Origin: Eledone cirrhosa
Lineage: Eukaryota
NCBI GenBank assembly: GCA_964016885.1
Contig: OZ024741.1
Location: 146,444,001 to 146,508,000 of the forward strand
DNA length: 64,000 nucleotides
Direction: 5' to 3'
Shown: one piece after another, positions 54,294 to 55,697 of the stretch
Numbering within the stretch: the stretch's first letter is position 1
Layout of the letters: every line of letters starts with the position of its first letter
Program-made: the position numbers and the translations under genes
Notes under the pieces: model-generated
Databases searched by the model: none
Told to the model about the DNA's origin: nothing
The model's input: only the letters and a program-made list of their open reading frames with translations

Positions 54294-55697
54294 CTAACAT
54301 AAGCGCACAGATGTACGCCAATGCCAGCAAATACACAGGTTATGTCATAGTACCTAGGTGGTTCAATGCAGGAGAATGCAGAACAATAATATAAAAGACG
54401 TAAAATAAGAAAAATTAAAAAAAAAAATTTAACTTACTTAAATTTTCACTCCAACTAATTAGTTTCTGCAATGGGATAAAGACAGTTACGTAATGAACTG
54501 TTGAGAATTTCATTGCGTCATCAGGGAGGTCATTCTCAGCCGAGTCTCCAGGCGATGCGCGGACACTGGGGACTCATATAAAAATAATAATAATTCGGTA
54601 AATGGAACAGCTATCGAGGACTGGATTCCAGCTACTGAAAATTTTCACTGCCACTGATCATATGGCCGATTCTAAAGAATCAATCACGTGACACAGAGGC
54701 TAGTCAGTAGGAATGGGATGGTAAGATGACAGGCGCCCACTAACACCCCCAAAAAAAATTTAGAAGTGGTTTTGGCAGGTTTGCTCGACAAATCAGTGAT
54801 TTGGAGATAAATATAGATAATTTAATATATCTACTAACATAAGCGCACAGATGTACGCCAATGCCAGCAAATACACAGGTTATGTCATAGTACCTAGGTG
54901 GTTCAATGCAGGAGAATGCAGAACAATAATATAAAAGACGTAAAATAAGAAAATTAAAAAAAAAAAATTTTTTTTTAAATTAACTTACTTACTTAAATTT
55001 TCACTCCAACTAATTAGTTTCTGCAATGGGATAAAGACAGTTACGTAATGAACTGTTGAGAATTTCATTGTGTCATCAGGGATGTCATTCTCAGCCGAGT
55101 CTCCAGGCGATGCGCGGACACTGGGGACTCATATAAAATTGTTCTGCATTCTCCTGCATTGAACCACCTAGGTACTATGACATAACCTGTGTATTTGCTG
55201 GTATTAGCGTACATCTGTGCGCTTATGTTAGTAGATATATTAAATTATCTATATTTATCTCCAAATCACTGATTTGTCGAGCAAACCTGCCAAAACCACT
55301 TCTAAATTTTTTTTTTGGGGGGGGGGGGGTGTTAGTGGGCGCCTGTCATCTTACCATCCCATTCCTACTGACTAGCCTCTGTGTCACGTGATTGATTCTT
55401 TAGAATCGGCCACATGATCAGTGGCAGTGAGAATTTTCAGTAGCTGGAATCCAGTCCTCGATAGCTGTTCCATTTACCGAATTATTATTATTTTTATATG
55501 AGTCCCCAGTGTCCGCGCATCGCCTGGAGACTCGGCTGAGAATGACCTCCCTGGTGACGCAATGAAATTCTCAACAGTTCATTACGTAACTGTCTTTATC
55601 CCTTTGCAGAAACTAATTAGTTGGAGTGAAAATTTAAGTAAGTTAATTTTTTTTAAAATTCTTTAAAAAAAATTTTCTTATTTTACGTCTTTTATAT
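54294..55697. mobile_element. 540-bp non-coding unit: 1.6 tandem copies plus one inverted, circularly permuted copy, embedded in (TA)n
   Basis: The unit starts at 54294 and 54834; inversion junction at ~55138; the inverted copy 55138-55697 spans the unit junction. Confidence 0.9.

Follow-up and report, generated by a model that had tools for sequence, protein, structure and literature searches.

How a short repeat without coding capacity came to lie in both orientations within a TA microsatellite, and from which template it was copied, is the question raised by an insert at positions 54294-55697 of the window, the whole stretch of 64,000 nucleotides from Eledone cirrhosa (contig OZ024741.1) analysed here. 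In our view the insert is probably a copy of a non-LTR retrozyme, made from an RNA, probably circular, on which a Penelope-like reverse transcriptase-endonuclease primed two sites, A and B, of the same molecule. This explanation is supported by the existence of a repeat family, a covarying ribozyme fold, two fixed start sites, the pairing of A with B, the common source of the two arms and the seamless passage through the cut site. All defining features with a clear outcome place the family among the non-LTR retrozymes, as a variant form that combines a long monomer, a branched helix II, a predicted self-blocking and a long tail.

The insert in the window and its repeat family

The insert consists of a long arm of 1.55 units (54294-55138, with the RNA sense on the minus strand) and an inverted arm of 560 nt (55139-55697, with the RNA sense on the plus strand), bounded on both outer sides by (TA)n tracts (54092-54293 and 55693-55783) that may have served as primers for the long and the inverted arm, respectively. 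The first-pass annotation had described this layout, and the complete 540-nt unit at 54294-54833, the inversion, the flanking tracts and the hairpins that it named are all present; the partial tandem copy at 54834-55138 is there as well (unit positions 1-290), although it amounts to 0.54 unit rather than 0.6. The insert had also been called non-coding, and no ORF of at least 150 aa overlaps it; the fold z-scores are -4.7 for the minus and -3.2 for the plus strand. The inverted arm starts at the fixed family site B (55697) and goes once round the unit, from position 96 to about 94. It had been taken for one permuted monomer, which fits its length here but is no rule of the family, in which B arms share a fixed start and span 33-1,402 nt; since arm length is not fixed, the permuted monomer is a weak argument for a circle, and better ones come from the family data. 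The start of the long arm at 54294 is specific to this locus, being without the last ~20 nt of the usual family end (one of 91 A-type junctions is alike), and the locus was scored as A although its start lies 20 nt short of that site. Within the long arm, on the minus strand, are found an internal copy of the tail of ~115 nt (54813-54929, from B at ~54929 to A at ~54813), with a short GUUC/GAAC hairpin and a 22-bp hairpin, and a predicted 555-nt monomer from cut to cut (54453-55007), which is the candidate circle.

The earlier reading would fall if the unit were single-copy, and the genome search finds a multi-copy family. In the 3.0-Gb host genome, a search with the unit yielded 117 scored matches, which came from 39 of 1,749 candidates, while a subfamily 20-mer has 821 exact matches and a 25-mer conserved across subfamilies 8,625, with 0 for either reversed control. 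The family comprises thousands of non-coding repeats of ~550 bases sitting in TA microsatellites. From the fetched loci, 54 distinct motif-to-motif monomers were cut, 522-571 nt long and 78-99% identical to the window unit, with a GC content of 45% over 411 unmasked positions. In the sampled loci the units of five subfamilies are joined head to tail with no intervening ORF, and no pair of LTRs flanks them; at least two consecutive ribozymes occur in the window (copies 1 and 2) and in 16 of 77 order-sampled loci, where one arm holds two complete cores; the family also has arrays of 4-5 units. A target-site duplication is unreadable because the flanks are (TA)n. The loci were chosen, mostly on one chromosome, by motifs in or beside the ribozyme, so that the sample leans to full-length copies and has one cut-site crossing built in.

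The arrangement seen in the window recurs at dozens of independent loci. That it should be an assembly artefact is therefore hardly credible: repeats within TA tracts do assemble poorly, and contigs from four public runs cover the unit while, among the contigs listed, none bridges the locus-specific inversion junction, which is uninformative either way, but the arms differ by substitutions, and 55 independent junctions with differing breakpoints all follow one rule. Among the public runs listed, no RNA data set contains the unit, which is uninformative as to its expression.

Several other features were observed in and around these repeats. A near-invariant mid-monomer block (54672-54692 in the window), present in all subfamilies and containing CACGTG and GATTGATTC, is a possible internal promoter. 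In one region (C28:45835000-45856000; L008, L009, L019 and L020) retrozyme arrays and their flanks are repeated several times in a larger tandem duplication, and at L133-L136, L115, L078 and L099 elements are nested, tail to tail, in one another's TA tracts. L092 (6510-7268) holds a 459-nt tandem unit whose hammerhead also has a long helix II and whose GTTCTG...GAACCAC hairpin resembles the one that follows site B, possibly a distant relative of the family; L101 (7742-9501) holds a tandem hammerhead family of ~490-510 nt whose units all contain an internal (TA)n; and at L091 (2382-3190) a different family has left a small inverted insertion whose two ends are unlike, the short one being followed by a hairpin, and in which the descriptor finds no hammerhead. 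Private variants in the copies (8 A>G, 13 T>C) bear no signature of A-to-I editing, and a metagenome scan for the unit gave one 20-nt match in an unrelated sequence, taken as chance. Elsewhere in the window lie two ORFs for reverse transcriptases (RT), each followed by a PHD-finger match (2889-4445 and 34328-36895, minus strand), and another hammerhead-like repeat (9100-9480), whose CTGATGA at 9261 passes the descriptor and which recurs in direct orientation near 9465 and in inverted orientation near 9100.

The family has the marks of mobilisation by Penelope-like elements (PLEs), namely a partial tandem with an inverted truncated copy, a one-ended tail and an AT-rich target. The unit itself holds no ORF for RT plus GIY-YIG and is thus no autonomous PLE. 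Young intact PLE ORFs are present in the genome, and the PLE ORF of the window (37334-38527, minus strand), 16 kb from the insert, shares no sequence with the unit. An autonomous element carrying the unit was sought in 50 GIY-YIG loci and 20 copies of a young Neptune-type family, drawn from more than 10,000 candidates, and none was found; among these 70 PLE loci (30 GIY-YIG loci, 20 long-ORF regions and 20 young Neptune-type copies) the unit matches only at L078 and L099, both being copies nested in TA tracts. It is very unlikely that the loci are no more than truncated copies of an autonomous Penelope-like family whose pseudo-LTR is the unit. The ribozyme is indeed of the PLE type, with a short helix I and a long helix II (PMC4209133), and the tail and the TA targeting are as in PLEs, but in the sampled loci of five subfamilies the units follow one another without an ORF between them, and the far ends of single arms have no common coding continuation. 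An origin of the unit from a pseudo-LTR is, instead, likely.

The predicted hammerhead ribozyme and the monomer fold

The first-pass annotation had seen in the unit a hammerhead-like motif with GTAA in place of GAAA and no clear stem I, and had proposed a non-canonical self-processing motif. This part of its reading does not hold, while the remainder, a non-autonomous unit of retrozyme or Penelope type for which both strands of the TA tract were primed, stands. The canonical GAAAC-TAATTA-GTT lies ~20 nt further on, the GTAA falls within a side hairpin of helix II (ACAGUU/AACUGU; 54481-54502, minus strand), and stem I exists (CTCC/GGAG in the DNA). The motif is predicted to be a type I hammerhead with a canonical core (CUGAUGA...GAAAC...GUU) and a long covarying helix II. 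Copy 1 (54449-54528, minus strand) is intact, with stem I CUCC/GGAG, CUGAUGA (54524-54518), a branched helix II, GAAAC (54466) and a palindromic helix III, ACUAAUUAGU; its predicted cut falls after GUU, at 54453|54452, and a hairpin upstream of it (GAGUCCCCAG/CUGGAGACUC; 54539-54573, minus strand) varies among subfamilies. Copy 2 (55004-55083, minus strand) has an intact core with one mismatch in stem I and one in helix II. The CTGATGA reported for all three window copies is thus intact in two, the inverted copy 3 (55547-55626, plus strand) having CTGGTGA (CUGGUGA in the core) and a helix II mismatch, by which it is likely to be inactive. Among the copies read, CTGATGA is intact in 81 of 84.

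A comparison of 134 copies shows that, in every subfamily, the six bases that follow CUGAUGA-C are complementary to the six that precede A-GAAAC: GCAATG/CATTGC, GTAAGG/CCTTAC, GAAAGG/CCTTTC and GTAATG/CATTAC. In an alignment of 44 copies (43 of 67 diverse copies plus a window copy), 90.5% of the cells of the canonical fold are paired over 36 pairs, with two-sided changes at 18 of these; none of 500 shuffles scored as high, and slid controls gave 34-48%. Within this fold, helix II has 95% of its cells paired and compensatory changes at three of six pairs, its side hairpin has them at five of seven, and the upstream hairpin at nine of ten, some from truncated rows; the GAGAA/UUCUC pseudoknot pairs at 92% and varies little. 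Hardly any change is seen in stem I and helix III, in part because the rows of the alignment were selected on that motif, so that these two elements contribute no covariation. The helix II of the first-pass annotation was also tried and was rejected, with 75% of cells paired and two-sided changes no more frequent than in shuffles. Helix II has a conserved C-A mismatch in its core-proximal position, and helix III is absent from the fold predicted for the monomer, so that cleavage may be weak. An Rfam search of the region returned no hammerhead and no other credible family; families with a hammerhead of this long, branched helix II may therefore be under-counted. A short helix I with a long helix II is the form described for PLE hammerheads, and a palindromic loop 3 that for hammerheads acting as dimers (PMC4209133); the family matches in all three traits.

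The monomer fold also suggests a way in which the ribozyme could be silenced. A predicted anti-ribozyme strand (CAUUCC; 54710-54715, minus strand) would pair with the bases just after the cut site. When the 555-nt monomer is folded as a circle, the model gives 0.98 for this blocking helix and 0.01 for stem I; when it is folded as a linear molecule, the values are 0.59 and 0.36. Across 13 monomers, the structure has two tail hairpins and a long-range helix around site A with two compensatory pairs, while the helix between the post-cut bases and the distant strand has one-sided changes only; these counts lean towards the monomer structure because it was derived from the same alignment.

Start sites, common source and template

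Arms were mapped in 132 loci, of which 29 were dropped as repeated fetches or segmental duplicates. In the remaining 103 loci, 172 arms were counted, with starts at site A (unit ~514-524) in 91 and, ~115 nt away, at site B (unit 95-96) in 68, elsewhere in 11 and at a locus edge in 2. Converging pairs numbered 65, and 55 of them join one A to one B, with no A+A, no B+B and 10 with an unresolved end, where independent choice would give A+B at most at 0.5 per pair. The primer side reads TA in all 68 B arms, and either TA or GA in 86 of 91 A arms; in 11 single B arms, TA lies at site B while the far end varies. The inner junctions of converging arms mostly overlap by 0-4 bases, and arm lengths within pairs are uncorrelated (rho -0.17, p 0.21). 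Runs of at least three AG units lie directly at 19 of 91 A junctions and at 0 of 68 B junctions, and may have arisen when initiation at A realigned several times. At junctions of L049 (after 1697), L012 and L052, short pieces of the A end or of internal motifs occur repeatedly, which fits repeated restarts.

The stretch between A and B corresponds to the Penelope tail. In PLEs, two internal RT start sites delimit the tail, both target strands are nicked and extended, and the enzyme is predicted to be dimeric (PMC11167929); kinship of PLE RTs with telomerase is stated in PMC8557442, and a one-ended tail on inverted PLE insertions was noted earlier (PMC8557442, PMC3846280). The same two kinds of end recur, in a few cases, in two autonomous Neptune-type families of this genome, where they are separated by ~37 and ~50 nt. 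In one of them A pairs with B in 3 of 3 pairs, by eye (L106, L115, L189); the few cases of the other gave, by script, 2 A+B and 1 B+B, the latter spanning unclassified ends of the complex locus L182, of which one is A-type by eye. L093 and L181-L200 belong to a young Neptune-type family, with ORFs near 796 aa, 96-99% identity and a ~37-nt tail, in which no CUGA core was found within the last 500 nt.

The two arms of a locus appear to derive from one source. In the window subfamily, opposite arms have non-majority bases in common as frequently as tandem passes, with shared fractions of 0.44 and 0.48, respectively, and of 0.07 between loci. At all of the 30 loci with at least 150 overlapping sites, the partner arm is within the closest 10% of arms, and in 19 it is the closest or tied. 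At common polymorphic sites, discordance is 1/180 between arms (at one such site of the window locus, the sole discordant arm pair), 4/361 between tandem passes and 9,040/24,101 (37.5%) between loci. Gene conversion between arms could also have made them alike. In L1-type twin priming, the first cDNA stops at the second primer site and the arms copy different parts of the RNA. This mode was considered and rejected: the A arm ends near B in 6 of 55 pairs, where 4.2 would be expected, and in 48 of 55 pairs more than 50 positions have been copied into both arms. A common source is also what would follow if the first cDNA folded back and primed itself, with B or A as a mere cut or stop point, as proposed for Penelope-type inversions (PMC3846280). 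One arm could fit inside the other in 36 of 55 pairs, and inner ends lie at most 20 nt apart in 7 of 55 (4.2 expected), but fold-back needs one arm to be nested in the other, and in the remaining 19 pairs neither contains its partner, which excludes it as the general route; the single B arms also speak against it. We give fold-back little likelihood as an explanation of the inverted arms; it may hold for a minority of insertions.

With dual priming on one RNA as the preferred reading, the form of this RNA has to be considered. It had been read as longer than one monomer, or closed beyond it, and this is upheld. Near the cut site, arm ends are no more frequent than expected (6 of 170, against 6.6), and two or more passages across it are seen in 51 of 157 arms. 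In the loci sampled with the unit and the 20-mer, which were found without the cut-site motif, none of 89 crossings carries an indel there, which argues against jumping between cut linear monomers. Furthermore, 26 rare variants are present in all copies of their own locus (147 are private), and tandem passes within a locus differ by 1.3%, against up to 22% among subfamilies, which have diverged to 78% identity; this indicates passage through a single unit that was then multiplied, and a circle would be the simplest explanation of such a bottleneck. The main rival, rather unlikely in our estimate, retains the same retrozyme and the same two-site priming and takes as template an uncut multimeric read-through transcript, with occasional homogenisation, any circles being by-products. 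A multimer would likewise leave no scar at the cut site, the arms with two complete cores and the arrays of 4-5 units agree with it, and autonomous linear elements of the same genome also yield A+B pairs; in vitro, uncleaved RNA was the dominant substrate of Penelope-type insertion, the ribozyme being dispensable and the start site not strand-dependent (PMC11167929), so that an uncut multimer could serve. Truncation, however, would shorten such arrays at each generation unless a single unit were re-multiplied, and both the low divergence between passes, beside subfamilies so far apart, and the locus-wide rare variants point to a bottleneck of one unit.

For the circular template, the following sequence of events can be proposed. 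The tandem-repeat family would be transcribed and would self-cleave to monomers, probably in dimeric form, as the palindromic helix III suggests; the monomers would be ligated, probably into circles of ~550 nt, in which the ribozyme would be blocked. A Penelope-like reverse transcriptase-endonuclease, presumably acting as a dimer, would nick both strands of a TA tract, site A being primed from one DNA strand and site B from the other on the same uncut RNA; synthesis would proceed past the other cDNA by strand displacement, and the two truncated cDNAs would be joined through short microhomology. A more specific version, put forward tentatively, is that a dimeric PLE enzyme works on one ribozyme-made circle with one start site for each nicked strand, both subunits rolling with strand displacement and the A subunit stuttering in a telomerase-like manner, thereby adding (AG)n and perhaps (TA)n. 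If it were true, the family would provide direct genomic evidence that the circles of animal retrozymes are PLE templates, and head-to-head PLE insertions would result from dual priming and not from self-priming.

Comparison with known systems

The class of element is already known; the insertion record of this family is less ordinary. In the literature on octopus hammerheads and Penelope elements and on mollusc retrozymes we found no description of this family, which Repbase, Dfam or supplements may list. Metazoan non-LTR retrozymes (PMC7229834) are alike in their tandem short repeats with a type I hammerhead in each unit and no ORF, in their low GC, thousands of copies and well-folded monomer, and in having PLEs as the proposed driver. 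Their monomers measure 170-400 nt, against 522-571 nt here, and, unlike them, the present family has an extended, branched helix II with a probable pseudoknot and a predicted anti-ribozyme helix, said there to be absent from most animal retrozymes; for fixed A and B starts with inverted arms no description was found in the available text of that work. In comparison with those retrozymes, the circle here is a candidate, predicted from genomic sequence. The consensus lengths of vertebrate retrozymes (51-972 bp; 10.64898/2026.07.22.740005) span the size of this family, and a PLE origin is argued there from co-occurrence and pLTR phylogeny, with data from vertebrates, insects and one anthozoan, whereas here the link comes from the insertion signature.

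Among the coding elements, Poseidon PAc of Anolis (PMC11167929) is alike in that two internal RT starts define its tail, a hammerhead is present, the target is AT-rich and both strands are nicked and extended. It is, however, autonomous, with a tail of the 30-40-bp type against ~115 nt here; its starts show no homology to the target, in contrast to the TATA-like A and B, and it had no strand difference in start site in vitro, while a pairing per event was not found in the accessible part of that report. Penelope, Neptune and Naiad (PMC8557442, PMC3846280) have the same partial tandems with an inverted 5'-truncated copy, the one-ended tail and the (TA)n bias, and differ in that the present family encodes no RT or endonuclease; its canonical hammerhead argues against an origin from Naiad.

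The origin of tandem and inverted PLE insertions with a one-sided tail has been called open (PMC8557442, PMC11167929), and PLEs as movers of animal retrozymes, with circles as their template, have been only proposed (PMC7229834). To these questions the family brings rules that can be counted, namely one A and one B for each event, one source, no fold-back and no scar at the cut. It is short, young and abundant, and provides a substrate of 555 nt on which direct tests can be made in vitro.
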